A stretch of DNA of 64,000 bases from Pirellulales bacterium (GTDB taxonomy: Bacteria > Planctomycetota > Planctomycetia > Pirellulales > Lacipirellulaceae): NCBI GenBank assembly GCA_050248495.1, contig JBFWSG010000004.1, forward strand, positions 23,686 to 87,685, given 5' to 3'. The position numbers and the translations under genes were made by a program. This document shows, piece by piece, positions 2,602-29,654 of this stretch. How positions within the stretch are numbered: position 1 is the stretch's first letter; each line of letters begins with the position of its first letter. The notes under the pieces are model-generated. The model worked only from the letters and a program-made list of their open reading frames with translations. It had not been told where the DNA came from and ran no database searches.

Positions 2602-2919
2602 ATGGCCCGGAAAGTAGTCAGTCGCAAAGAAAAACGAGCGGAAGTCGAAGCGGCGGAAAAGGCCGGCAAAAAGACGACGGCTACCAAGACCAAGAAGGAA
2701 CCGGGCGCCAAGGCGGCCCCCAAGCGCAAGAGCAGGGCCAAGGCGACCAAGGACATCCGCCTGAAGGCCTTCTGGGGCGTGTTCAATCAAACGCTCAAGC
2801 GGATCGCGCTATTCGAATACAGCGAGCGCAAGAAGGCGGATAAGATGGCCGCCGAGCTCACCGCCAACGGCAAGTCGCCCCACTTCGTCCAGCTGGTAAA
2901 AGACGTCGTGCAAGAGTAG
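2602..2919 (+). CDS. lysine/alanine-rich basic protein, histone H1-like / possibly nucleoid-associated
   Basis: The N-terminal ~55 aa are KKTTATKTKKEPGAKAAPKRKSRAKATK, low-complexity and highly basic. A non-repetitive C-terminal domain follows (FWGVFNQTLKRIALFEYSERKK...). Confidence 0.55.
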   Translation: MARKVVSRKEKRAEVEAAEKAGKKTTATKTKKEPGAKAAPKRKSRAKATKDIRLKAFWGVFNQTLKRIALFEYSERKKADKMAAELTANGKSPHFVQLVKDVVQE

Positions 2920-2943
2920 CGGCCCACAAGAATAGCGGCCCAC

Positions 2944-2965
2944 ATAGCCCGGCCATCCTGGCCGG
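2944..2965. repeat. REP-like palindromic unit, type A (ATAGCC + CCGGCCATCCTGGCCGG)
   Basis: CCGGCCA-TCC-TGGCCGG is a perfect hairpin. The same unit recurs at about 12352 and 40489. Confidence 0.7.
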
Positions 2966-3008
2966 TGCTGAGGCCGCGCTTTGTATTTCTTCGCCGATCG
3001 GCCCGGTT

Positions 3009-17170: not shown

Positions 17171-18013
17171 ATGCACATCCCCTCGCACTGGACCCGCGGC
17201 ACCGCCACCATTCGCCTGCCCGATGGCCGCGAGTTCCCGCTCACCGTCTGGGGCTGGGCCAACGACAAAGCCGCCGCCCAACGAATTGCCGCCGAGCGCC
17301 TGCAGCGTGTCCAGGATCGGTTCCGCTCTGGCGACTGGCCCGATTGGTACGCCTACGGGTCGCGCCCGCTCCGCGAGGAAATCCTGCAAACCTTCCACGC
17401 CGACGGCGCCGCCGAACCCGTCGCCATCGTGACCCGCAACGGCTACGGCACCCAAGTCCTCAACACATCCTCCCTGCTCTTTCTCGACATCGACCGGCCG
17501 CTGCCCACCTTGCGACAGCGCCTCCCGCGTTGGCTCGGCGGCAAACCCGCCCCCACCGGCGAAGAAATCCTCTTCAGGCTCCGCCGCGCGCTCGAAGCGC
17601 ACGCGCCCACGACATTCCGCATCTACCAAACCGCCTGGGGCTGGCGCGTTGCCGCGGTCGACCGTGAATTCAATCCCACCAGCGACTCGACCCAATCGCT
17701 CATGCGCGCGACCGACACCGATCCGTACTACATGCGCCTCTGTCAGGTGCAGCAAAGCTTTCGCGCCCGATTGACCCCCAAACCGTGGCGCTGCCACGTC
17801 GCCCCGCCAACGTCCCAATATCCCCGCACGGACGAACAGGCCCAGCGCCAATTCGCCGCCTGGCTACGTGACTACGAGCAAAAAACAACCGGCCACGCCA
17901 CCTGCCGCTACCTCGAAACGGTCGGCACGAGCAAACCGAATTCAACCCTCGCGTCACTCCTGGAACTCCACGACACCGTCACCCGCAGCCACGAACCACT
18001 CCCGCTGGCCTAG
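17171..18013 (+). CDS. hypothetical protein (possibly a 5' portion of a longer gene interrupted at 18011)
   Basis: The 280-aa ORF has good GC3 bias. It ends at a TAG formed at the junction with hairpin repeat copy 2. Confidence 0.65.
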   Translation: MHIPSHWTRGTATIRLPDGREFPLTVWGWANDKAAAQRIAAERLQRVQDRFRSGDWPDWYAYGSRPLREEILQTFHADGAAEPVAIVTRNGYGTQVLNTSSLLFLDIDRPLPTLRQRLPRWLGGKPAPTGEEILFRLRRALEAHAPTTFRIYQTAWGWRVAAVDREFNPTSDSTQSLMRATDTDPYYMRLCQVQQSFRARLTPKPWRCHVAPPTSQYPRTDEQAQRQFAAWLRDYEQKTTGHATCRYLETVGTSKPNSTLASLLELHDTVTRSHEPLPLA

Positions 18014-18038
18014 GCGAGCTCGCTTCAGCGAGCGGGCG
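18013..18038. repeat. hairpin repeat element copy 2 (GGCGAGCTCGCTTCAGCGAGCGGGCG)
   Basis: It starts within the stop codon of 17171..18013. Confidence 0.7.
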
Positions 18039-18245
18039 ACTCAGCATCTGACACCCGCCACCTTCCGCACCTGCCGCCTCGAGTACGTGAAGCAAGCCCG
18101 CAACCCGCTCACGACCTCCCAGTCCCACCGTCTGCAACAACTCGACTACCGCCTGCAACTCGTGGCCGAAGGCCAAGCCTCCGCCGCGACAATCCGCAAC
18201 GAAGCCCTCGATACCCTCGACGCCTTCAATTGGTCCCTGCCCTAA
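18039..18245 (+). other. coding-like ORF segment without an ATG; it may be the displaced C-terminus of the 17171 gene or a small GTG-initiated gene
   Basis: Frame 0 is open from 18012 to the TAA at 18243-18245 with strong GC3 bias (TQHLTPATFRTCRLEYVKQARNPLTTSQSHRLQQLDYRLQLVAEGQASAATIRNEALDTLDAFNWSLP). Deleting 22 nt of the hairpin element (18012-18033) joins it in frame to the upstream gene. Confidence 0.4.
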
Positions 18246-18248
18246 TGC

Positions 18249-18274
18249 GGCGAGCTCGCTTCAGCGAGCGGGCG
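18249..18274. repeat. hairpin repeat element copy 3
   Basis: It is identical to copy 2 and lies 3 nt after the TAA at 18245. Confidence 0.7.
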
Positions 18275-18753
18275 TCCTGCCCCAAGACTTCGCCACGCTC
18301 GGATCACTCTTCGTCGCCAACCCCAACCACGCCCTGCGCTCGCCGCCATAGGCCGTTCGCACCATCAGGATTTGCGCCTCGACGATCGCTGGCGCCACGT
18401 AAGCACAATGCGCCAGCACAATCTCACGCAGCACGACTCGAACCAATCGCTGGCGAAACCGTCTCACGACTTCCATCGCATCTCTTCCAAAAAGGGTTCC
18501 AGCATGCAGGGGAAATACGCCACATCGCCTCAAGAGTTTCCCAGCCCCGTTCACAGCTCCTGTCCCTCATCCCAGGCCCGGGATTGTAGCCGGGCTTTAT
18601 GTCCACCAACTCCATACAATTCCGGGGAGGTCGAACGATAGTCGCAAATGCTGGCGTGCTTCCGTCAGGTGCTTGCTTCCATCGACCAGGGCCCGATAAT
18701 CTGCGCTCACAATCAATCGCCTCCTCCAGTTACTCCTCCTTCCGAGCGCGAAC

Positions 18754-19644
18754 GTGGGACGTCTTACATTTCTGGTGGTCTTCACGAGCAATGCATTGTT
18801 GCTGCCCACGGCCTGTTTTTCAGCCGTCTCGAAAATTGACTCACCGTCACAAATCGAAAGCGGCACCACGATTTCGTTCGACGGCATCCCGGATTTGACG
18901 GTTCTAAATACCTTGTATCAGAACCAAGGTGTCACGTTCACACGCGATGACGCGGGGCCAATCTTCGCATTTGACGTTGTCGCGATCGGTCGCATAACCA
19001 CGTCGCCGCGAAACGTCCTCGCGACGATTCAGGCCGGAAGTGCCTCTGGCCCGACCACCCATCTCAACGTGCTGACGACGGCGCCGGCCCAAGCGATCGG
19101 AGCCTACTTTGGCAATGATCAGAACAATCCCGACTTCAAGTCGATTCGCCTTTCGGCATACGGGCTCGCTGGCGAATTGCTGGGATCCGTCGAGTCCGCC
19201 GCAAACAACAACATCCACGTCGACCAGTTCATTGGACTACGGAGCGACTCGCCAATCGGCAGAGTCCGCTTCCAGAATTTGAATGCGACCGGGGGATTGG
19301 CGGGCGGCTACTCAGTGGTCATCGATGACCTGGTGTTCTCCTCCGCGGCGCCAAATGTCCCTGGCGATTTCAACGCCGATCAATTCGTGGACGCCGCGGA
19401 TTACACGACTTGGCGCGACCACCTGGGCACCAGCTTTAACCTCAACGGCAACGGGAGTGAAGAGGGCGCGAGCGCGGGCGTGGTCGACCTGGCCGACTAC
19501 GCCTTGTGGACGCAACATTTCGCGCAGCCTGGCAGTGCCAGTCACGGCAGCATTGTGCCCGAGCCCATCGCCGTGTTGACAATGTCGACGGCTTGTTGCT
19601 TCGTATGCTCAGTGCGCCGGCGCCAAATCAACCACATGAGGTAG
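18754..19644 (+). CDS. PEP-CTERM-anchored secreted protein with dockerin-like Ca-binding repeats
   Basis: It has a signal peptide and two dockerin-type segments (GDFNADQFVDAADYTTWRDHLG and VVDLADYALWTQHF). The C-terminus VPEPIAVLTMSTACCFVCSVRRRQ is a PEP motif plus a transmembrane helix and an Arg cluster, i.e. an exosortase sorting signal. Confidence 0.7.
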   Translation: MGRLTFLVVFTSNALLLPTACFSAVSKIDSPSQIESGTTISFDGIPDLTVLNTLYQNQGVTFTRDDAGPIFAFDVVAIGRITTSPRNVLATIQAGSASGPTTHLNVLTTAPAQAIGAYFGNDQNNPDFKSIRLSAYGLAGELLGSVESAANNNIHVDQFIGLRSDSPIGRVRFQNLNATGGLAGGYSVVIDDLVFSSAAPNVPGDFNADQFVDAADYTTWRDHLGTSFNLNGNGSEEGASAGVVDLADYALWTQHFAQPGSASHGSIVPEPIAVLTMSTACCFVCSVRRRQINHMR

Positions 19645-19848
19645 ACGAAGCGCAGCCGCTAACAGCGGAGGGGGAGAATCGAACTCGACCGGCGCAGGGG
19701 CCGATCCGGGCTGGGCTCATAAGGCTCGTTGCATCACCAGACGCGGGCCGCTCTCCTAGGCTGGGAGTCATAAGCACCAAAAAGCATCCACCAGATGAGA
19801 AACAGAGACATAGGGGAATAGCGACAAACCTGCTCTACCTGAGGTTGG

Positions 19849-20097
19849 CTATTCGTGGCTAAAGAACTCTTTGTCAGAAACGTTGTCTTTTTTGGACAAC
19901 TTAAACTTCTTGCGGACGCCAGCCACGTAACAATCTAGGATCTCGTCCTCTTTCTTCTGCTTGGGAATCGGATACGAGAAGATATTCCCGTTGATGTTCC
20001 GCTTGAACATCGTGTGGCTGCCCTTGCCGCGCGCGGTCTCTTCCCAGCAATCATAGTGCGATAGAATGCGGCGGAGCTTTCTTAGCGAATACGGCAC
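19849..20097 (-). CDS. hicA: HicA-like mRNA interferase toxin
   Basis: LRKLRRILSHYDCWEETARGKGSHTMFKR..YPIPKQKK matches the HicA consensus (GW....KGSH..F.....P.HKK). It has an approximately 30-aa C-terminal extension. Confidence 0.6.
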   Translation of the reverse strand: MPYSLRKLRRILSHYDCWEETARGKGSHTMFKRNINGNIFSYPIPKQKKEDEILDCYVAGVRKKFKLSKKDNVSDKEFFSHE

Positions 20098-20106
20098 GCG
20101 GACATT

Positions 20107-20529
20107 TTACACCGCGCACGTACTTCCACCAGCGTATTCCCGATACTGGCATTCCTCGATCTCGAACGAATCGATATGCCGTGGAGCGCTAACTTCCTTG
20201 AGCTGCAATTCGCCAATGGCGATGTTCTTCCCGGCGGCAAACATCTCAAAAAACTTGCCGTCAGCCGGGCTGAAAAGATTGGCCGGATTATCGTGCTCGA
20301 TTGAAGCCTCGATTTGAAGAGCGATTGCATCGCCCAATTGATCCAGCGCTTCCTCGCGGGTATCCCCGTCACCCATCAAATCGAATTCAAGGCAATGCGC
20401 AACCCAAGCGTTCCCTTCCTTGTAGAAGACGATGCGGATCGGCAATCGCATTGACTCTGCCATGAACTTCCTTACACGCGGCGCAACAAAACGGCCCGAC
20501 CTGAACGGCTGGGCCATGATCGTTTCCAT
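20107..20529 (-). CDS. hicB: HicB-like antitoxin (UPF0150/HicB N-terminal domain)
   Basis: PIRIVFYKEGNAWVAHCLEFDLMGDGDTREEALDQLGDAI is HicB-like. The start is likely METIMAQ at 20529, with an AGGAAA Shine-Dalgarno; the track start is 20568. Confidence 0.55.
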   Translation of the reverse strand: METIMAQPFRSGRFVAPRVRKFMAESMRLPIRIVFYKEGNAWVAHCLEFDLMGDGDTREEALDQLGDAIALQIEASIEHDNPANLFSPADGKFFEMFAAGKNIAIGELQLKEVSAPRHIDSFEIEECQYREYAGGSTCAV

Positions 20530-20686
20530 CTTTCCTGGTTTGACATCCCGATCATCCTGACAGTCCATTTAATCGGGTCGCTAATGCAACTATATCCAAC
20601 CAAACGGCCGAAAGCAAAAGACTGGTCATGCCCCCCAGAAGTGCCGTCAAATTGATGAAAACACCGAGAAATACGCGGCCGGCGCC

Positions 20687-20726
20687 CGCGCGGATAGCTT
20701 TCAAAGCTTTGAAAGCTATCCGCGCG
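20687..20726. promoter_or_regulatory. 40-bp perfect palindrome CGCGCGGATAGCTTTC-AAAGCTTT-GAAAGCTATCCGCGCG
   Basis: Two 16-nt arms around a palindromic 8-nt core were verified by eye. It lies about 160 bp upstream of hicB and about 340 bp upstream of the HNH gene. Confidence 0.75.
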
Positions 20727-21062
20727 CACACGATCTGTCAACGGATGGCGGGTGCCAGAGGTCAAAATGAGGGCGCCAACTCCGTTGTAAATCACGAGCT
20801 CGGCCGCTATGATGACGCCCGTAGAACGAAACGCTGGCCTCTGGGGTGTTGCACTCGCCACCCCAGGGGCCAACTTCGTTTTTCGACATTGACGAAAATG
20901 CGATAGCACTGTTAGACTGTTCACGTTGTAGGAGTCCTGTCCGAACGGATTCGAGCGTTTCGTTCTACAAGCCTCTCGCTCAGCCGCCTCTGGCTCGCAC
21001 TCCTGGTATTTGTTTCCGCGCACCCGGTGCGCGCTGACATCCTTTTTAAAGGAGTGCATGTC

Positions 21063-21359
21063 ATGTATTGCAATTGGACGCATGAGGAACGGTCTGCTGT
21101 GTGGTTCAAGGGTCGCGCTGTCCCCGGCGTCGATGGCGACAAGTGGCGTCTCGACGTTTGCGGAGCTTGGATCGGCTGGCAGTTCTACGGCAACCGCAAC
21201 TCGCAGTATGGATGGGAAGTGGACCACATTGATCCACGCGGCGGCGACGGGCTTCACAATCTTCAGCCGCTCCAATGGGAAAACAACGTAGCCAAAGGCG
21301 ACGGACACTTGGCATGCGTTGTTACGGCATCGGGCGTGGAGAACGTTGCCGTTCGTTAG
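21063..21359 (+). CDS. HNH endonuclease, small stand-alone
   Basis: An AAAGGAG Shine-Dalgarno lies 7 nt upstream of the ATG at 21063. The HNH motif is YGWEVDHIDPRGGDGLHNLQPLQWENNVAKGD. Confidence 0.7.
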   Translation: MYCNWTHEERSAVWFKGRAVPGVDGDKWRLDVCGAWIGWQFYGNRNSQYGWEVDHIDPRGGDGLHNLQPLQWENNVAKGDGHLACVVTASGVENVAVR

Positions 21360-21567
21360 TCCTTTCCCGCGTTCCCTCCGGATGACAGAGCGCGCTCGTG
21401 GCTAGATCGAAGTCCGCGCGCACAAACACTCTGTCGTCCTCTGGGACGGCATCCATAATCCGGCGGATGCACTCACAGAGTGCGTCCGCCTCTTCGTTTC
21501 CAAGGGTCAACGGGTAGTCCTGCTGCCGAACGCTTTCAAGCAGCAATCGGATTGTCGCGTTATTCAA
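21322..21567 (-). CDS. hypothetical small protein (81 aa)
   Basis: An AAGGAG Shine-Dalgarno lies 4 nt upstream of the ATG. It converges on, and overlaps, the 3' end of the HNH gene. Confidence 0.4.
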   Translation of the reverse strand: MNNATIRLLLESVRQQDYPLTLGNEEADALCECIRRIMDAVPEDDRVFVRADFDLATSALCHPEGTRERTNERQRSPRPMP

Positions 21568-21727
21568 TGGTGCTCCTTAGCCATCCAGCGCGGTCGCCCG
21601 GAATGCCAGGCGAAGGGGGCGGGATGGTCGCAGGGCCGCAGAATCGCGGCAAGACCGCAGAGACGCACTCGGCGTGCCGGCGGCGACATTGTGGTAAGCT
21701 GGGCGAAATTCCGCCGGGGGTCCGACT

Positions 21728-21782
21728 CGCACACTTACATCCAGCACCACCTCGCTTTGGGTGGTGCTGGATTAAGTGTGCG
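21728..21782. terminator. long hairpin with a 23-bp stem and one bulge, directly downstream of the 21788..22432 gene
   Basis: cgcacacttaCatccagcaccacc-tcgctttg-ggtggtgctggattaagtgtgcg. Its left arm is part of a 39-bp direct repeat shared with 25788-25825. Confidence 0.55.
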
Positions 21783-21787
21783 GGGAT

Positions 21788-22432
21788 TTACGCGTGCCGA
21801 TAGCGTAGGTCGGGTATTCGGACGCCATAGCCAGCGCAGACATCGCACTCAGCTTCTATGCGCCCGAACTTATGGCCAGTGCCCTTGCATATCTGGCATT
21901 TGGGATAGTGGGACAATTCACCGGGAAGCTCGCCGGTGCCACCACACTTGCTGCAAATAGCTTCTATGCGATTCCATTTCAGACCAGAGCCTTTACACAG
22001 AGGGCATCTCATGGGCGGAATCGAATCTGCCGGATCGTTGCTTCCCGTTTTGCCTTCACGCACCATTCTTCGGTGAAGCATGAAATCGGCGATGGTTGCT
22101 GGTGTAAATCGCGGGATTTTAGGGAGGGCGGTAGACTTCACTACTGTGGTAATGGTCGCTGGCGATGGCGAAGCTGTAACTCCGTGAAATGTTTCCAGAA
22201 GTCCCCGCAATTTCGGAAGATTGACAACGACAATGATCGTCAGCCCAAGTAGGCAAAGTCCGGTTCGTACGATGTCATGGCTAAGAATCGTTGCGACAGC
22301 GTTGAACGCCATCCCCCAATTCCGGATGTCATCCGGCAGGCCACCCAAGCCAATAATACCAATTACAGTACCTAGCACGTTCCCTACTCGGCGCACGTTG
22401 CGCCACGGTGGTACGTTCCAATCGACAGCCAT
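21788..22432 (-). CDS. membrane protein (2 predicted transmembrane helices) with four DnaJ-type CXXCXGXG zinc-finger repeats
   Basis: The repeats are CPLCKGSG, CSKCGGTG, CQICKGTG and CDVCAGYG in the C-terminal 80 aa. The transmembrane helices are VLGTVIGIIGLGGL and LCLLGLTIIVVVNL. GC is about 52%. Confidence 0.6.
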   Translation of the reverse strand: MAVDWNVPPWRNVRRVGNVLGTVIGIIGLGGLPDDIRNWGMAFNAVATILSHDIVRTGLCLLGLTIIVVVNLPKLRGLLETFHGVTASPSPATITTVVKSTALPKIPRFTPATIADFMLHRRMVREGKTGSNDPADSIPPMRCPLCKGSGLKWNRIEAICSKCGGTGELPGELSHYPKCQICKGTGHKFGRIEAECDVCAGYGVRIPDLRYRHA

Positions 22433-22518
22433 GCCATGCTCCTACGACTTGACGCGCGCAGCCGTAGGCCATACCATGCAATCACCTAGATTGTGCATGG
22501 CCTACGTGGTCATTCAAA

Positions 22519-22551
22519 AGCTGACGGCTCCACCCGTCAGCTTTTTTGTTG
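22519..22551. terminator. hairpin plus T-run (agctgacgg-ctccac-ccgtcagct-ttttttg)
   Basis: The 9-bp stem lies between the zinc-finger membrane gene and the transposase. It is palindromic and could function on either strand. Confidence 0.45.
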
Positions 22552-22601
22552 CGTGAATTATATCGACTCTCTGCACAAAGCTACAGTGGCGGGGGCACCA
22601 C

Positions 22602-23561
22602 CTAGTCCGCCATCACATTCTCAATCATTTCTCGCACCGACCACACCTTTGTTGCAACGCCGTGGGCAACGGCCGGCGTCAGCCCTTTCAATGTCTTGTG
22701 TTGACGGCAATAGTTGTAATGACAGAAGTACACGGCCAGCGCGGCACGGTGGTTGTTCCACTTCTTTGAGAAGCAGTAGGTCAAGCGGCCCATGCGCTTC
22801 ATGTGGGTGCGGATGCTGCCGTTCATTCGCTCAACGTGCGAGGTGCATATCTGATCTTGTTGGAATGGCGTGCCGTGCATCGGGGTCCGGCTGGCCCCTA
22901 TTATCCGAGCCGGTGAGTACCGGCGCTGGTCCTCGTAGACATTGACGCCGTATATCTTTTGCATCACGCCGTGGTCGACGCGGTGTCCAAGCTGCTTTTT
23001 GATTTCGCTTGGATAGCTCCGCCAGCCGTCGCTACTAACGTGGAAGTGACCGAACGTGGCCCGGTCCAGTTTGGCGATGAACTGCTCGGTGTGCTGCTGG
23101 CTGCGGCGGCCCATGTGCCAAGTAATGAGCAGCTTTGATTGGCGGTCGATGGCGGTGTAGCAATAGCTGTCGCCGCAGCCGCCAACCATCTTCTGCGCTT
23201 TTGTGGTCGCGTTTTTTGCTAAAATAAATTGCCAAATTTCGTCCACCTGGGTGTCGCTGACAAACACGTCCTTAATGTGTTCGGCCATGTACTTTTCGCA
23301 GTGCTCGCCGAGCATCGTGAGCAGCGAGAGGATCGTCATTAAGTCGGTGCCGGTGAAGCGGGCGGTGGCGCGAACATTCATGCCCTCGCACAGCAGCTCG
23401 ACGATCTTGGCGGCTTGCTCAACGCCGATCCGCATGCCGCCCAGCATGGCGGTGGATTCGGTCCAGGACGCGCCGCAGCTCTTGCAGCGGTAGCGGGTGG
23501 CCCCGGCCTTAGTTTTCCCATTCGTGCGGCGGTTCTCATGCTGACAGACGGCGGCAATCAT
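22602..23561 (-). CDS. DDE transposase, IS1595-family-like
   Basis: An N-terminal zinc ribbon (RYRCKSCGASWTE) is followed by a DDE-like core (DEIW..., AIDR, SDGWRSY). The C-terminal motif is YFCHYNYCRQHKTLKGLTPAVAHG. Confidence 0.75.
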   Translation of the reverse strand: MIAAVCQHENRRTNGKTKAGATRYRCKSCGASWTESTAMLGGMRIGVEQAAKIVELLCEGMNVRATARFTGTDLMTILSLLTMLGEHCEKYMAEHIKDVFVSDTQVDEIWQFILAKNATTKAQKMVGGCGDSYCYTAIDRQSKLLITWHMGRRSQQHTEQFIAKLDRATFGHFHVSSDGWRSYPSEIKKQLGHRVDHGVMQKIYGVNVYEDQRRYSPARIIGASRTPMHGTPFQQDQICTSHVERMNGSIRTHMKRMGRLTYCFSKKWNNHRAALAVYFCHYNYCRQHKTLKGLTPAVAHGVATKVWSVREMIENVMAD

Positions 23562-23756
23562 TGCGAAACTTCCCCGTTCTTAGGGCCTTCGCTATGATTC
23601 AGTTCTCTAGGCTGGAATCTGGCGAAAGCCGGTTCTAGTTGCCCCCGGTCGCGTGCCAACGCTTCCGGGGGTTTACTTTTGCCTACATTTATTCTACCCA
23701 TAATTAATCGGCATTGCAAGGGTTGACGCAAGATTATTTATGGGTATATTTATGGC

Positions 23757-23933
23757 ATGGAAAACAAACGAGGCAGGCCGCCTAAGGCCCCAGAAGACCG
23801 CAGGACTGAGGACATCAAAATCCCACTGAGCGAAGCGGAGAAGCAGCAGATTCAATCTGCGGCCGAATCCGACGACGCCAAGCCCGTTACATGGGCCAGG
23901 AACGTGCTCTTGAGGGCCGCCAAGAGGCGGCTG
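23757..23933 (+). CDS. small ribbon-helix-helix DNA-binding protein (MobC/CopG-like), 58 aa
   Basis: This ORF is absent from the track because it is under 60 aa. It translates to MENKRGRPPKAPEDRRTEDIKIPLSEAEKQQIQSAAESDDAKPVTWARNVLLRAAKRRL. The RGRPPK, K-I-P-L-S-x-x-E and VTWARNVLLRAA pattern is typical of MobC-type RHH proteins. Confidence 0.5.
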
Positions 23934-24199
23934 TGAGCGGAGAGCAGGGGTTACGATCCCAGCCGCGAAAAGTTTGCACGGCCCCCTTCGGCGGGTTATA
24001 AACCACGCTACGCCAGCCAAGACGCGGGCCGCTCTCCGATAGAGAACGGTCTGTTGAGGCTTAGAATGTGGCGAACATGTTTCTAAGACACCTACGCTAC
24101 TGCTTGGTTCGCGGCTGGTTATTGATGCACCCAGAGCGATGCGCCAGAGGCCGTTATGGACGATTGATAAGGCGCACCCGAAGATACAGGCAAAGTAGG

Positions 24200-25699
24200 A
24201 TGACTACGGTCGATGCAGCGATCAATCCAAGTAAAAGTTTACCCGACCACTGGAGCGAATCGATGTCCGACATCACGTCGGTAAACGAGCAAATCGCTGC
24301 ATTGACGCAACGATTAGCCAATGTGAATGAGTCGGCAAATGCGTATGCGACTGCCGGACACGTGTTCGCCGCGGCCATAGCGCTCTTCACGGCCGCAGTA
24401 TTCTTTACATCGTATTTGGGGGCAAGTAAAACGCGGCAGGTTAAGAAAATCAGCGACGAACTTGCAACTGCTAGGGAAGCGCAGCTGAGTTTGATTCTTG
24501 CTGACAAAGACGCCAAGATCGGTGCAGCTAACGCGACGGCAGCTACAGCGAATGCCGAAGCAGCCAAGGCAAACGAGGGCCTCGCAAAGGCAGGCCTCGA
24601 TATTGAGGACCGCAAGAATGAGAACCTGAAATTGGAGTCGCAGGTTACCACTCTCCGAACAGCGGCCGCCAAAGCTGATGCAGCACTTGAGGAAACCCGA
24701 ATTAAGGCGGCAGAAGCGCTTGAGGGTCTCGCGGAAACCGGGGAATGGCAGCGAATACAAGAAATGATTCGCTCGGAGATCGAAGAAGAGCTGACCCCGC
24801 GAGGCGTTAACATAGAGTTGGCTAGTGCCAACATTCTAAAAGAGTTTCGCGGGACGAAATTCTTCGTGACAACGCCAACAGAAGTAGAGCCGATAAGGCT
24901 GGGTAAGGGAATTGAAGATTTGCTGTTAGAGTCAGGGTGGGAGCGTGTCGCGCCACTCTCGGCGATTGTCGAATCCGAAGAGTTTGAATTCGATAACAAC
25001 GTGACATTCAAGTCAAACTTTCGATCCGAGGAAGAATTAAAACCGGCAGTATATGCACTTGCCATCGTCCTGCAAAAAGAGCGAATTGACTGTTTCCATT
25101 TCATCGACACTTCTCCCAAGAGAGGGCAACCGCCAATTCCTAAAGGTGCCATTAGCATCGTCGTGGGACCAAAGCGCACAACGTACTCCAGGCAATTGAC
25201 CGACAGGGCGGACTCACCTCGGTGGGATGCTCGGCAGAAAGCGATGGTAGAGCTTGAGGGCCGCCGCGAAACAAAAGCACCACCAGATGCCTCCCTGCTC
25301 GGCCCCATGTCTGAAAATGCGTGGCGCGTCTTTGCAGAATGCGCGCCAACTTCAGGAGACGCAGTGTTAGTTGGAAATTCAATGAACGATCCGGCGGATG
25401 AATGGGTCGTCGGCGTCCGCGATGGATTGTTGGTGGCCGGATGGACCGTGGTATCGACCGTGCTATTCGACGAACAGCGTATGCTCGGCATTGAGCGCAA
25501 CGCCGTAATTCTTCGTAAGAACGCGCCAGCAGCACGCAGGCAACAGGCGGAGAAATTGCACAAGGCGCTCTCTGATGCCGGGTTCCAGCCAGTTTTTGTG
25601 GAGACAGAATCGCCGCCGAAAGGATTCGCGGTGTGCGTGTTAATTGGCGGTCCCGGAGATGGCGCGCAGGGCGACACTGGCCCGGCCAAACCGGAGTAG
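24200..25699 (+). CDS. hypothetical membrane-anchored coiled-coil protein (about 500 aa)
   Basis: The start is likely MTTVDAAI at 24200; the track start at 24068 gives an implausible Arg-rich leader. It has one transmembrane helix (HVFAAAIALFTAAVFFTSYL), about 120 aa of Ala/Lys/Glu coiled coil, then a C-terminal domain of about 300 aa with two related sub-modules. No family was recognised. Confidence 0.6.
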   Translation: MTTVDAAINPSKSLPDHWSESMSDITSVNEQIAALTQRLANVNESANAYATAGHVFAAAIALFTAAVFFTSYLGASKTRQVKKISDELATAREAQLSLILADKDAKIGAANATAATANAEAAKANEGLAKAGLDIEDRKNENLKLESQVTTLRTAAAKADAALEETRIKAAEALEGLAETGEWQRIQEMIRSEIEEELTPRGVNIELASANILKEFRGTKFFVTTPTEVEPIRLGKGIEDLLLESGWERVAPLSAIVESEEFEFDNNVTFKSNFRSEEELKPAVYALAIVLQKERIDCFHFIDTSPKRGQPPIPKGAISIVVGPKRTTYSRQLTDRADSPRWDARQKAMVELEGRRETKAPPDASLLGPMSENAWRVFAECAPTSGDAVLVGNSMNDPADEWVVGVRDGLLVAGWTVVSTVLFDEQRMLGIERNAVILRKNAPAARRQQAEKLHKALSDAGFQPVFVETESPPKGFAVCVLIGGPGDGAQGDTGPAKPE

Positions 25700-25787
25700 A
25701 AAGTGTTAATCACGGCGCACCCCCTGCGGAGTCGCCGCTTTTCGGACTCGCGGAACGCACCCACGACCGGACAAGGCGCCTCACTGC

Positions 25788-25825
25788 TGCCGGGGGACCG
25801 ACTCGCACACTTAATCCAGCACCAC
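25788..25825. repeat. direct repeat of 21713-21751 (gccgggggWccgactcgcacacttaMatccagcaccacc)
   Basis: Of 38 nt, 37 match copy A with one extra base, and the match extends a further 10 nt (gccctttgg vs tcgctttgg). The two copies bracket 4.07 kb holding the zinc-finger membrane gene, the transposase, the RHH gene and the coiled-coil gene. Confidence 0.6.
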
Positions 25826-26431
25826 CGCCCTTTGGCACACCCGTTGCATCTAATCCGTCGTCGCCTGAACGATCAGGCACCAAGCGTTCGGAACAAACGC
25901 TCGGGGCCGAACAGAGAAGAGGCATTTTGTCTGGGGTCGGTCGGCGAAGAGGCAAATCTGCCGTGTTCGGATCTGCATATCAGGAAAGAAGTTAGCGAGA
26001 TCTGCCCACCTCCCACAGAAACTCGCAAACCAGGCGCATTTCCGACACGTCACGGGCGAGTCGCGGTCTTCCGAGAGGCTAGACCACGACTCGCCCATCT
26101 TTTTTGACTGTTGCAAAATCGTACATGTGTATTTTTCCAATACACTTTTCTGGGACACTTCGTCACCCACCTGCCAGTCGACAAATCACGTCCGCAGAAT
26201 TTTTCCAAGATTTTCTCGGCCGCCAATTCGCGGAATCGCTCGACCCGCAAATCCACGACTGCTCAACTGTGTGTCCCCCGGTTGAGCAGTCGCAAAAAGC
26301 CGGCAAAAAGTGGTAGCCGCCCGTTGAACAGTCGCCCCCTTTTTTTCCGACACCTCGCACCGCCTGCGGACGTTAGAACGTGGGGCAGCCAAATCCGCGC
26401 GGTCGATCATAATCAAGCAATGAGGATCTCA

Positions 26432-26491
26432 CCGCTAATCCGCGCTAATGGACGCTAATTTCCATTAGCGCTCCTTAGCGACAATTAGCGG
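26432..26491. promoter_or_regulatory. heptamer dyad array: 3 direct CGCTAAT units followed by 3 inverted (A)TTAGCG units
   Basis: ccgctaat ccgcgctaat ggacgctaat ttcc attagcg ctcc ttagcg acaattagcg. The centre (cgctaat-ttcc-attagcg) is a perfect palindrome. The array ends about 25 bp before the GTG start at 26515. Confidence 0.55.
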
Positions 26492-26514
26492 TTTGCTTTA
26501 CCGGGACCAAGGCT

Positions 26515-28275
26515 GTGGCGCACGTCACTCGACCATCGCAGGTGCTCGCATTCGCCGCGGTCGCACTGTTGACACAGGCTGCATTCTTTCATCGCACGGC
26601 TCGCGCCGCGGACCAGGTCGTCGCCAGCGCTGCGACGGCGCCCGCGCGATCGGCCGGTGACGCCAACACGCCGCCGGAAGTGGCCCTGATCGACGAGGCG
26701 ATTTCGGCCGCCTGGGCGGACCAGAATCTCGCTCCCTCCCCGCCGGCTAGCGATGGCGAGTGGTGCCGCCGCGTGTATCTCGACATCCTGGGCCGCATCC
26801 CGACCGTCACCGAGCTGCGCCAATATTTTGCCGACCGGAAACGCGACAAGCGGGCCCGGCTGGTCGACCGGTTGCTCGGCCCCGAATATCGCGACGAGTA
26901 CGTCCACAACTGGACGACGATCTGGAGCAACGTCCTCATCGGCCGGACGGGCGGCACCGATCGCCGCTCGCTCACCAGCCGCGAAGGGATGCAGGTGTAT
27001 CTGAGCGAGGCGCTGGCTTACAACCGGCCGTACGACCAGATGATGCGCGAGCTGGTCACCGCCACGGGCGCCTGCCGGCCGGAGGACAAGAATTTCAACG
27101 GCGCGGCCAATTTCCTGGCCGACAAGATGGAAGAGAATGGCGTGCAGGCCACGGCCAAAACGGCCCAGATTTTTCTGGGCATGGCGGTGCAGTGCACGCA
27201 GTGTCACAACCATCCCTTCAACGAGTACCAGCAGAACCAGTTCTGGGAGCTCAACGCCTTCTTCCGCCAGACCCGCGTGCGGCGGATTCGGCTCGATGAC
27301 CAGCGGCAGCGGTTCGCGGGCCGCGTGGTCGACCGCGACTACCGCGGCGAGACGGGCGACGTTGCGAAAGCCGACCTGTTCTACGAGCTCCGCAACGGCC
27401 AGATGAAGGTCGCCTACCCGGTATTCGTCGACGGCACGTCGCTGGCCGAAGTCTACAAGGAGAAGGGTGAGGATTTTGGCGATCATGGCAAACTCAGCGA
27501 CGTCAACCGCCGCGAGGAGCTGGCCAAGTTGATCGCCGGGTCGCGTGAGTTTGATCGGGCAATCGTGAATCAGATTTGGGGCCATTTCTTCGGTTACGGA
27601 TTCACGAAGCCGGTCGACGACATCGGCCCGCACAACACGCCGTCCCACCCCGAGCTCCTCGACCAGCTCGGCCAATCGCTGCGCCGCGCGGAGTTCGACC
27701 TCAAGCAACTGATGCGGTGGATCGCGCTCTCGGAAGCGTACAGCCTGTCGAGCCGCACGACGAAGAAGAACGAGGCCGACGATCCGGAGCTGGGAGCGCG
27801 GCCGATGTTCACCCATTTCTACCTGCGGCAGATGGAGGCCGAGCAGCTGTACGAGTCGCTGCTGGTGGCGACCGCGGCCGACCAGACGGTGCAGAGCGAC
27901 GAGCGACGGGACGAGGTCCGCGAGCGGTGGCTGCGACAATTCAGCAAGGCTTTCGGCACAGACGACGGCGGCGAATCGACGAGTTTTAATGGCACGATCC
28001 CACAGGCGCTCGCGTTGATGAACGGGCCGCTGGTAAAACGGGCCACGGGCAACCAGGGGGGCAGCATGCTGGCCTGGGTGGCCGAGCATCCGAAGATGAA
28101 CAGCGCCGAGAAGATCCGCTACTTGTACCTGGCGGCGCTGTCGCGGCGACCGACGAAACCGGAGATCGCCTTGTCGAACGATCTGCTGGCGGCCCGCAAC
28201 GGGAATGTCGGGGCGGCGCTGCAAGACATTTGGTGGGCACTTTTGAATAGTAACGAGTTCATATTGATACACTAA
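26515..28275 (+). CDS. DUF1549/DUF1553 domain protein (planctomycete PSD1-like family)
   Basis: CTQCHNHPFNEYQQNQFWELNAFF is a DUF1549 signature. WALLNSNEFILIH is the DUF1553 C-terminal signature. A signal peptide is present and the gene starts with GTG. Confidence 0.8.
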   Translation: MAHVTRPSQVLAFAAVALLTQAAFFHRTARAADQVVASAATAPARSAGDANTPPEVALIDEAISAAWADQNLAPSPPASDGEWCRRVYLDILGRIPTVTELRQYFADRKRDKRARLVDRLLGPEYRDEYVHNWTTIWSNVLIGRTGGTDRRSLTSREGMQVYLSEALAYNRPYDQMMRELVTATGACRPEDKNFNGAANFLADKMEENGVQATAKTAQIFLGMAVQCTQCHNHPFNEYQQNQFWELNAFFRQTRVRRIRLDDQRQRFAGRVVDRDYRGETGDVAKADLFYELRNGQMKVAYPVFVDGTSLAEVYKEKGEDFGDHGKLSDVNRREELAKLIAGSREFDRAIVNQIWGHFFGYGFTKPVDDIGPHNTPSHPELLDQLGQSLRRAEFDLKQLMRWIALSEAYSLSSRTTKKNEADDPELGARPMFTHFYLRQMEAEQLYESLLVATAADQTVQSDERRDEVRERWLRQFSKAFGTDDGGESTSFNGTIPQALALMNGPLVKRATGNQGGSMLAWVAEHPKMNSAEKIRYLYLAALSRRPTKPEIALSNDLLAARNGNVGAALQDIWWALLNSNEFILIH

Positions 28276-28282
28276 AGGGAAT

Positions 28283-28364
28283 GACGAATGACCAATTCCT
28301 AATGACGAATGAATACGGTAGGCGGACGTACATACGTCATTGGGCATTCGGAATTCGTCATTCC
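28283..28364. repeat. TGACGAATGA / TCATTCGTCA repeat cluster (family also at 44897-44995 and 63480-63580)
   Basis: aatgacgaatgacc...taatgacgaatgaatac...cgtcattggg...ggaattcgtcattcc. The last unit is the exact reverse complement of ggaatgacgaattcc at 44899. Confidence 0.6.
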
Positions 28365-28382
28365 GCAGCGAAGGTTGCCACT

Positions 28383-29654
28383 ATGAAATGCGACTGCAGT
28401 ATTCCCCCCGGCATGACCCGGCGTCATTTCATGCGTCACCTGGCCGGTGCGTCGGCGCTGGCGCTCCCGGCGTTTGCGTTCACGCGGACACTGCGGGCCA
28501 ACGCTCCGGCGCTCTCGAAGGCGCACAAGTCGGCGATTCTGATCTGGCTCGGCGGTGGTCCACCGACGATCGACATGTGGGACCTCAAGCCGGGCGCCCC
28601 GACCGCCGGCCCGCTCAAGCCGATCAACACGACCGGCGATTTTCAGATCAGCGAGCGGTTGCCCAAGCTGGCCGAGCAGGGGAAGCACCTGGCGATCGTC
28701 CGCGCGATGAGCACCCGCGAGGCCGACCACGAGCGCGGCCGCTACTACATGCACACCGGCTACGTGCCGAACCCGAGCGTCGAGTATCCCAGCTACGGCT
28801 CTGTGATTTCGCACGAGCTCGAAGACCTGGTGCCGCAGCTCGAGATTCCGCCGTTCGTGTCGATCGGGGGCCCCAGCGAAGGGCCGGGCTTTTTGGGAAT
28901 GGCCTACGCGCCGTTCCAGGTCGACGCCAACGGCAACGTCCGCGACACCGAGATGAGCGTTCCCTGGCAGCGGATGGTCGATCGGCTCAAGCTCCTTGAA
29001 GCCGTCGAAACGCGATTCATCCGCGAGCGGCGCGGCAGCGCCGCCGAGGAGCACGCCAAGGTGCTTAAGAAGACGCAGGATTTGCTCACGAGCGACCAGA
29101 TGAAGGCGTTTCAGGTCCGCAGCGAGGAGCAGAAGGTCCAGGATCGCTACGGCAACACGAACGTCGGCCGCAGCTGCCTGATGGCGCGACGCCTGGTGGA
29201 GGTCGGCGTGCCGTTCGTCGAGGTCGACTTCGGCGGCTGGGACCTGCACAAGGACTGCTTCACGACGCTCGACACGAAGCTGCCGGAGCTTGACCAGGCG
29301 TACAGCGCGCTCCTGGAAGACCTCGCCCAGCGCGGATTGCTCTCGAACACGGTGGTGCTGTGCATGGGCGAGTTCGGCCGTACGCCGCGGATCAACGGCG
29401 ACGCCGGCCGCGACCATTTTGCCCGCGCGTGGAGCGCGGTCCTCTCGGGCGGCGGCATCCGCGGCGGCCACGCGATCGGCAAGACCAACGCCGACGGGAC
29501 AAGTGTCGACACTGAGCCGTTCTCATCCGAAGACCTGATGGCCTCGGTGCTGAAGGCGCTCGACATCTCGCTGGAAACTACCTTCACAACGCCCAGCGGC
29601 CGCCCGATGAAAATCGCTAACAGCGGCCGGGTCATTGGCGAGCTGTTTGCGTAA
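28383..29654 (+). CDS. DUF1501 domain protein (sulfatase-like fold, Tat-type signal), usual partner of DUF1549/DUF1553
   Basis: The Tat signal is MTRRHFMRHLAGASALALPAFAF. DUF1501 hallmarks are present (LIWLGGGPPTIDMWDLKP, GGGIRGG). The start is placed at 28383 because the track's first 34 codons lie in the repeat cluster. Confidence 0.8.
   Translation: MKCDCSIPPGMTRRHFMRHLAGASALALPAFAFTRTLRANAPALSKAHKSAILIWLGGGPPTIDMWDLKPGAPTAGPLKPINTTGDFQISERLPKLAEQGKHLAIVRAMSTREADHERGRYYMHTGYVPNPSVEYPSYGSVISHELEDLVPQLEIPPFVSIGGPSEGPGFLGMAYAPFQVDANGNVRDTEMSVPWQRMVDRLKLLEAVETRFIRERRGSAAEEHAKVLKKTQDLLTSDQMKAFQVRSEEQKVQDRYGNTNVGRSCLMARRLVEVGVPFVEVDFGGWDLHKDCFTTLDTKLPELDQAYSALLEDLAQRGLLSNTVVLCMGEFGRTPRINGDAGRDHFARAWSAVLSGGGIRGGHAIGKTNADGTSVDTEPFSSEDLMASVLKALDISLETTFTTPSGRPMKIANSGRVIGELFA

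Follow-up and report, generated by a model that had tools for sequence, protein, structure and literature searches.

Between the hicBA genes and an HNH nuclease gene of this Pirellulales bacterium lies a long palindrome, which raises the question of whether it belongs to the toxin-antitoxin genes, to the nuclease gene or to neither, and of whether it would act as DNA or as RNA. The window referred to below is the whole 64-kb stretch of DNA that was analysed. The palindrome and the genes on its two sides are located as follows:

20687..20726, no strand assigned: perfect 40-bp palindrome (reverse-complement identity, simulations, folding).
20107..20463, minus strand: hicB, 118 aa, with a HicB-like fold in its N-terminal half.
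19849..20097, minus strand: hicA-like toxin gene, 82 aa, with a GKGSH motif and a weak Pfam HicA_toxin match (E = 0.015).
21063-21359, plus strand: HNH gene, 98 aa, its start preceded by AGGAG.

Positions 20687-20726 read CGCGCGGATAGCTTTCAAAGCTTTGAAAGCTATCCGCGCG and are identical to their own reverse complement, forming a perfect 40-bp palindrome of 20+20 nt with a spacer of 0. This confirms the zero mismatches of the original prediction, whose 16-nt arms around a palindromic 8-nt core are an equivalent description of 20+20 nt without a spacer. The symmetry breaks abruptly on both sides, where a C at 20686 is set against a C at 20727. In 20 first-order Markov simulations of the window, with loops of up to 10 nt allowed, the longest perfect arm was 9-13 nt against 20 nt in the palindrome; the claim that it was very unlikely to have arisen by chance is borne out, and chance is excluded. 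Folded as single-stranded DNA, the palindrome reached -24.9 kcal/mol (z = -6.4 against shuffles). All other strong hairpins of the window have loops and are terminator-like in appearance. The centre of the palindrome is AT-rich (GATAGCTTTCAAAGCTTTGAAAGCTATC, 36% GC over the central 28 nt), with CGCGCG at both ends, and its core can also be read as three AGCT-centred boxes of 9 bp, at intervals of 9 bp, a pattern without another match in the window. The hicB and HNH genes diverge from a gap of 599 bp, in which the palindrome is located 337 bp upstream of the HNH gene.

The original prediction had itself anticipated that the palindrome might be an artefact of assembly or a member of a dispersed repeat family; both were tested and neither held. 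An artefact might be suspected from the behaviour of short-k assemblies, which break exactly at the palindrome: two independent Logan contigs from another read set (L002 and L003) stop within it on the same 30-mer. A break on a shared 30-mer is, however, expected of a true palindrome, because a de Bruijn graph at k=31 behaves in this way. Furthermore, positions 17860-28857 of the window are 100% identical, palindrome included, to JBFWVU010000170.1 of the Pirellulales MAG GCA_050246575.1, an independently deposited contig that crosses the palindrome with unique flanks on each side. A search for further copies yielded nothing related, with none elsewhere in the 64-kb window, zero matches of the 26-nt core in 185,579 species-representative genomes and zero matches of a palindrome 20-mer in IMG/VR viral contigs. 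The 20-mer had 14 matches in JGI/ENA metagenomes, all in unrelated AT-rich sequence without the GC-rich ends and mostly from human-gut assemblies. An artefact or a dispersed repeat is thus scarcely credible.

A REP or MITE was rejected on the same grounds, the palindrome being present as a single copy in the window and absent from the genome and viral collections, with only unrelated 20-mer matches in metagenomes. The ends of an insertion sequence, or a junction of abutted inverted repeats, were rejected since the nearby IS1-family element has no similar ends and the arm has no second copy. Rfam returned nothing at gathering thresholds and, at permissive E-values, generic miRNA hairpin models far below threshold; no tRNA was found by ARAGORN. 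The open reading frames overlapping the palindrome (92 aa on the plus strand; 59 aa and 278 aa on the minus strand) were treated as non-coding, since Pfam scans, where run, gave no match and GC content was even across the three codon positions. Short-k assemblies were seen to break within inverted repeats at more than one locus: L002 and L003 start at the window palindrome and L085 starts in the apical part of the related L086-type repeat described below. Such breaks imply that elements of this kind are under-represented in contig collections.

One candidate role put forward for the palindrome was that of a recognition or cleavage site for the adjacent HNH endonuclease. Many nucleases act on symmetric sites, and the distance of 337 bp to the HNH gene is compatible with such a role. 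HNH homologues of 61-74% identity were found in four independent lineages (L018/L019, L020-L023, L083 and L084), but no comparable palindrome was seen in any of them over about 1.2 kb upstream and 1.5 kb downstream of the start of the gene. The two closest of these loci (L018 and L020/L021) have in common with the window only about 250 nt beside the HNH gene, ending about 100 nt short of the palindrome, whereas hicBA relatives on contigs of about 1-1.6 kb, which carry no HNH gene, have upstream DNA homologous to the palindrome. The association with the HNH gene therefore finds no support in the four homologue lineages, and a role as its site is very improbable.

The leader of about 250 nt that the HNH homologue loci have in common (window 20814-21062; L018 5778-5806; L020 2398-2430) has features of its own. 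It contains a hairpin (window 20835-20872, followed by a T-run) of which the position is kept while the sequence differs, and in the window this hairpin is enclosed by a 22-nt long-range inverted repeat (20814-20835 / 20954-20975). Promoter-like sites are found on this side at 20785-20813 and 20889-20918. The 3' end of the HNH gene is overlapped by 38 nt by the convergent gene of an 81-aa acidic protein (21322-21567, minus strand); the same arrangement with a convergent small gene occurs at HNH loci L018-L023 and L083, and the 81-aa gene could be a partner or immunity gene.

The genes that follow the 81-aa gene encode a protein of 214 aa with a DnaJ-type zinc-finger region, an IS1-family transposase, an RHH protein of 59 aa and a protein of 543 aa, which has weak matches of the coiled-coil (SMC-like) type. 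At 53-59%, the GC content of the 18-26 kb part of the window is below that of the surrounding DNA (about 63%), and the genes on either side are typical of planctomycete chromosomes. This low-GC stretch (18000-26000) contains hicBA, the HNH module, the IS1-family transposase gene (22602-23561) and the RHH gene, and the ends of the identical MAG contig, at 17860 and 28857, fall on either side of it. An AT-rich, 33-nt imperfect inverted repeat (23677-23764) lies between the transposase and RHH genes.

The RHH protein, encoded 3 kb away, had been the basis for a further suggestion, namely that the palindrome is an oriT-like nick region which this protein serves. oriT regions contain inverted repeats, and the RHH protein has a weak NikA-like match, although at E = 0.0028 and 18 bits this stays below the cut-off of 27 bits. 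The larger predicted proteins scanned over about 10-30 kb of the window, however, comprise neither a relaxase nor a coupling protein nor a type IV secretion component, and the flanking genes are chromosomal (PSCyt2, PSD1, DUF1501, FliN). The IS1-family transposase gene and three other genes separate the RHH gene from the palindrome, and neither plasmids nor phages gave a match to hicBA with its upstream region. The suggestion is left unsupported by these results, which make an oriT extremely improbable. Relatives found in viral contigs reach no more than 32-36% identity, and chance accounts for the viral matches to the leader motif. A protelomerase target of the telRL type was also rejected; the palindrome is perfect over at least 40 bp, as such a target would be, but there was no protelomerase-suggesting match among the scanned neighbours and the context is chromosomal.

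The closest relatives of hicB are P0122 (76% identical HicB; L085-L088) and P0123 (69%; L089). Their loci have in common with the window a non-coding control region of about 300 nt, extending from hicB up to the palindrome region. Similarity starts at about the -35 element of a predicted promoter, P1, and continues through hicBA, the DNA of which is about 70% identical. Since this upstream DNA is common to the hicBA relatives, and the HNH loci share the HNH-proximal part only, the palindrome belongs to the hicBA cassette and is assigned, by sequence comparison, to the hicBA side. The comparison of the palindrome region itself draws on three informative lineages, namely the window, L086/L087 and L089. 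Elsewhere in the Planctomycetota, a comparable palindrome was found within 500 bp upstream at 0 of 47 more distant hicB loci, which counts against the regulatory explanation preferred below and in favour of an origin without a function. The control region comprises the following elements:

20736..20741, minus strand: -35 hexamer of P1, TTGACA, identical in the window, L086/L087 and L089.
20713..20718, minus strand: -10-like hexamer of P1, TAGCTT, inside one palindrome arm and identical in the three lineages.
20641..20664, minus strand: T-rich block GTGTTTTCATCAATTTGACGGCAC, between P1 and P2 and common to L086 and L089.
20589..20617, minus strand: predicted promoter P2, TTGCTT (20617-20612), 17 nt, TATAGT (20594-20589), with homologous sites called by promoter scan.
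20464..20588, minus strand: hicBA leader, with sequence motifs common to five lineages.

P1, predicted on the minus strand and facing hicB, consists of TTGACA, 17 nt and TAGCTT. One palindrome arm begins 8 nt upstream of the -10 hexamer, covers it and reaches the predicted start site, which, judged from the -10, would fall near 20706-20708, the centre of the palindrome; the second arm lies just downstream of this site. An inverted repeat thus covers the predicted core promoter of a toxin-antitoxin operon, as in hicO-like operators. The pattern TTGACA-N16-18-TAnnnT has P1 as its sole match on either strand of the 64-kb window, where 0.15 matches are expected. Both hexamers and their 17-nt spacing are the same in the window, L086/L087 and L089, while the spacer sequence is only about 40% identical; fixed hexamers at a fixed spacing with a free spacer sequence are the pattern of a promoter. 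The similarity of the window to L086/L087 and L089 fades just upstream of the P1 -35. At the corresponding place in L089 (37-66, minus strand) there is a strong divergent promoter-like site (TTGTCA, 18 nt, TACAAT; 10/12), with a -35 region in common with P1. A weaker version is present in L086 and none in the window, in agreement with the end of window homology at the P1 -35.

The explanation that we prefer, tentatively, is that the palindrome is a cis-regulatory inverted repeat of the hicBA upstream control region, and it may well make P1 unavailable to RNA polymerase. As the conserved -10 lies in the first arm, transcripts from P1 would not contain that arm, and for these transcripts the repeat could act only as DNA. 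Action at the DNA level, with the symmetric palindrome occluding P1, would then be most likely. A dimeric protein bound to the symmetric site might block P1; alternatively, the spacer-free palindrome with its AT-rich centre might be extruded as a cruciform under negative supercoiling, with the same effect. Either way, the outcome would be control of read-in from P1 towards the main, proximal P2 and hicBA. Horwitz and Loeb are said to have engineered, in 1988, an E. coli promoter that is regulated by cruciform extrusion. The palindrome has the sequence features of a cruciform promoter, in that it is perfect, spacer-free and AT-rich at the centre and lies over predicted core promoter elements, and extrusion, if it occurs, would take the -10 out of the duplex. 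Set against the preferred explanation, TAGCTT agrees with the consensus at only 3 of 6 positions, and P1 is 243 bp from the hicB start, whereas most relatives have a -10-like element about 40-70 nt from the start.

P2 (TTGnnn, 17 nt, TATAnT) lies about 110 nt downstream of P1, proximal to hicB, and is better conserved than P1. Homologous sites were called by the promoter scan in L086 (TTGCTA-17 nt-TATATT), L089 (TTGCAA-17 nt-TATACT) and L091 (TTGACC-17 nt-TATATT). After P2 follows a leader of about 120 nt with a CCCGAT/ATCGGG hairpin at 20547-20577 and a GGCCC/GGGCC hairpin at 20493-20515; the latter is followed by GTTTT (TTTT at 20488-20491), about 25 nt before the hicB ATG, and with its TTTT looks like an attenuator. 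The pairs of both hairpins are mostly invariant, and covariation therefore speaks neither for nor against them. No Rfam family matched the leader. P2 and the leader were found in five lineages (window 20464-20617, minus strand; L086 434-600; L089 139-342; L091 2896-3105; L094 about 2850-3000), and the motifs common to them suggest a structured control region. An upstream frame that starts MAQP in the window is not conserved, which indicates that the leader is conserved at the level of nucleic acid. A 183-aa open reading frame upstream of hicB in L086 was dismissed as spurious, having no protein-level homology in the window and a frame that is not conserved across lineages.

The region of several hicBA relatives also contains a hairpin repeat of about 56-70 nt (CGCACACTTAcATCCAGCACCACC...GGTGGTGCTGGATTAAGTGTGCG). 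Copies were located in the window (21711-21779 and 25789-25835), L086 (86-153) and L087 (50-117), with further copies in L094 (3907-3941), L095 (1387-1421) and L024 (2288-2322). The repeat adjoins hicBA relatives in several lineages and its identity is about 88%, against about 70% for hicBA DNA; it may be an element of the REP or MITE type or else a shared terminator.

The three informative lineages differ at the palindrome itself. L086 and L087, which come from two different samples, have a perfect 16-nt inverted repeat, with the arm CGTGACGGTAGCTTTT, about 32 partly self-pairing nt and the arm AAAAGCTACCGTCACG. The first arm starts at the same position relative to P1 as the arm in the window, from which it differs at 5 of 16 positions, and all five changes are matched in the partner arm. 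In L086 an extra outer pairing (CAAGTTG/CAACTTG) extends to the -35 hexamer. In L089, P1 is kept, TAGCTTTTCCGCG runs directly into the conserved T-rich block and the second arm is absent. In two lineages the repeat has thus been either under selection or homogenised by concerted evolution, and in a third it is dispensable. For the preferred explanation, P1 without a second arm in L089 means that the repeat is dispensable in at least one lineage, and the change in arm distance from 0 nt in the window to about 32 nt in L086 is a poor fit to a single rigid dimer. It also disfavours a cruciform in L086, where a repeat with about 32 nt between its perfect arms would extrude poorly.

Concerted evolution raises the prospect that the palindrome has no function, having arisen as an inverted duplication of the promoter region via template switching, with its arms kept identical by hairpin-templated correction in the absence of selection. 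The two lineages differ at 5 of 16 positions and yet each has perfect arms, a result that concerted evolution by template switching would give, and the want of a second arm in L089 agrees with this. In addition, the extra segment of L086 lies between similar short direct repeats (GCTTTTCGCG, CCTTTTTCGCA), as expected of gain or loss by slippage. However, the stem base occupies one and the same place relative to the promoter in two lineages with only about 70% identity in their hicBA DNA. This speaks for long retention, even though palindromes tend to be deleted, and a position over the core promoter is unlikely to be without effect. A neutral origin is, on this evidence, distinctly unlikely.

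The same comparison bears on the level at which the repeat would act, since it could also form an RNA hairpin, with a duplex of 18-20 bp, in minus-strand transcripts arriving from upstream. Such a hairpin might insulate the cassette or terminate transcription at its boundary, might serve in stabilisation or processing, or might be a dsRNA site recognised by HicA, a protein with a dsRBD-like fold. The stem base is kept, the arms compensate and the apex ranges from 0 to about 32 nt of imperfect pairing, which is evolution more like that of a hairpin than of a dimer site. As RNA, the region folds at -53.7 kcal/mol in the window (z = -4.8) and at -55.1 kcal/mol in L086 (z = -4.0), and in each of the three lineages the T-rich block lies 12-24 nt further downstream. 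HicB, moreover, has no recognisable DNA-binding domain, and the regulation of such hicBA operons is described as open (PMC10865869). Against this, the position of the conserved -10 keeps the first arm out of P1 transcripts, the window has no conserved promoter or minus-strand gene immediately feeding the site, no U-run adjoins the stem as it would in a canonical intrinsic terminator, and the repeat is absent in L089. We consider an RNA hairpin unlikely, if arguable.

A canonical intrinsic (Rho-independent) terminator was rejected, because the flanks (GGCGCC and CACACG) have no T-run, the site was not called by the terminator scan and the flanking genes diverge. The palindrome resembles Rho-independent terminators and REP-type hairpins in being a very stable, GC-clamped intergenic hairpin, and differs from them in the lack of a U-run at the stem, in its single copy and in lying between genes that diverge rather than converge. 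Perfect palindromes without a spacer are, even so, found among terminator-like elements of the Planctomycetota. One of these, a 34-bp perfect palindrome at L027 1929-1962 (TAAGGCCCGGCGATCACGTGATCGCCGGGCCTTA), was rejected as a second hicBA case, being located between convergent genes and terminator-like; it is found in a Humisphaera MAG beside a hicA homologue, at a locus where hicA and hicB are divergent and do not form one operon.

Whether the preferred explanation can include HicB as the acting factor depends on the protein. The start of hicB at 20463 was set by alignment of 30 relatives, which begin MxxLRxPLRIVFY. The N-terminal half resembles the HicB/UPF0150 fold, with weak matches to DUF7387 and HicB_lk_antitox; the Pfam matches of the 30 family members fall on this HicB-like fold (residues 9-64 in the member shown in detail), and the sole PDB sequence match is to the N-terminal domain of TTHA1756 (2yzt). 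An AlphaFold2 model of HicB was confident at about residues 4-56, intermediate at 60-88 and had pLDDT <50 at 89-118. Neither Pfam nor the model, which shows no RHH or HTH topology, gave a recognisable DNA-binding domain in the C-terminal half, in contrast to the HTH, RHH or Phd/YefM domain of the antitoxins that bind hicO-like operators. The cassette holds no other regulator gene, which, with the nature of the HicB family, counts against the preferred explanation. The original prediction had suggested an auto-regulatory operator of hicBA, and of the three roles that it offered this fits best, in that the palindrome lies in the hicBA-conserved block, over the predicted -10 and start of P1 facing hicB. 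Self-repression by HicB, on the other hand, is unsupported, given the absence of a recognisable DNA-binding domain. P1 is also a distal element, at 243 bp and upstream of the better conserved P2.

Palindromic operators of type II toxin-antitoxin genes include hicO of E. coli hicAB, BS2 of Yersinia pestis hicA3B3 and S1-S2 of Burkholderia pseudomallei hicAB (PMC11594946, PMC10865869). In Yersinia and Burkholderia, the operators of HicB lie over the -10 box, and hicAB of E. coli is served by two promoters (PMC11594946). The present locus is similar in having an inverted repeat over the -10 upstream of a hic operon and, like E. coli hicAB, two tandem promoters, both predicted here. The known hic operators are, however, imperfect repeats of about 15 bp bound by a HicB with an HTH or RHH domain, whereas this is a perfect 40-mer beside a HicB without a recognisable DNA-binding domain. 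It also differs from them in covering the distal of the two predicted promoters and in an arm distance that varies between lineages. A palindromic cis-element in a toxin-antitoxin promoter region is therefore of a known kind, and what is unusual is that it is perfect, 40 bp long and associated with an antitoxin that has no recognisable DNA-binding domain.

Class 2 hicBA loci, as defined by Gerdes in 2024, have the antitoxin gene first and a small HicB (63-103 codons) without a DNA-binding domain (PMC10865869). The order hicB then hicA, with 9 nt between the genes, and the partial RNase H-like fold of HicB without a recognisable DNA-binding domain agree with this class; in close relatives, too, the 82-aa gene follows hicB. 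In contrast to Class 2, HicB here has 118 aa, above the 63-103 codons, and a conserved C-terminal half of which the fold was not recognised. HicB proteins without a DNA-binding domain are common, and the regulation of this hicBA class is an acknowledged open question (PMC10865869).

A more speculative and rather improbable extension is that hicBA modules of this kind are regulated by nucleic-acid structure in place of contact between antitoxin and operator, either through a promoter-embedded hairpin that acts as a cruciform or through dsRNA sensed or cut by a dsRBD-like HicA, together with an attenuator-like leader. If so, the palindrome would be the visible part of a new cis-regulatory scheme for the hicBA class whose antitoxins lack a DNA-binding domain. 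If the repeat controls P1, as we tentatively prefer, it would provide this class with a concrete and testable cis-element, for which the two lineages with compensating arms and the one natural variant without a second arm constitute a small natural experiment. Otherwise, it would be an ordinary single-copy regulatory palindrome, unconnected with the HNH nuclease and with DNA transfer.
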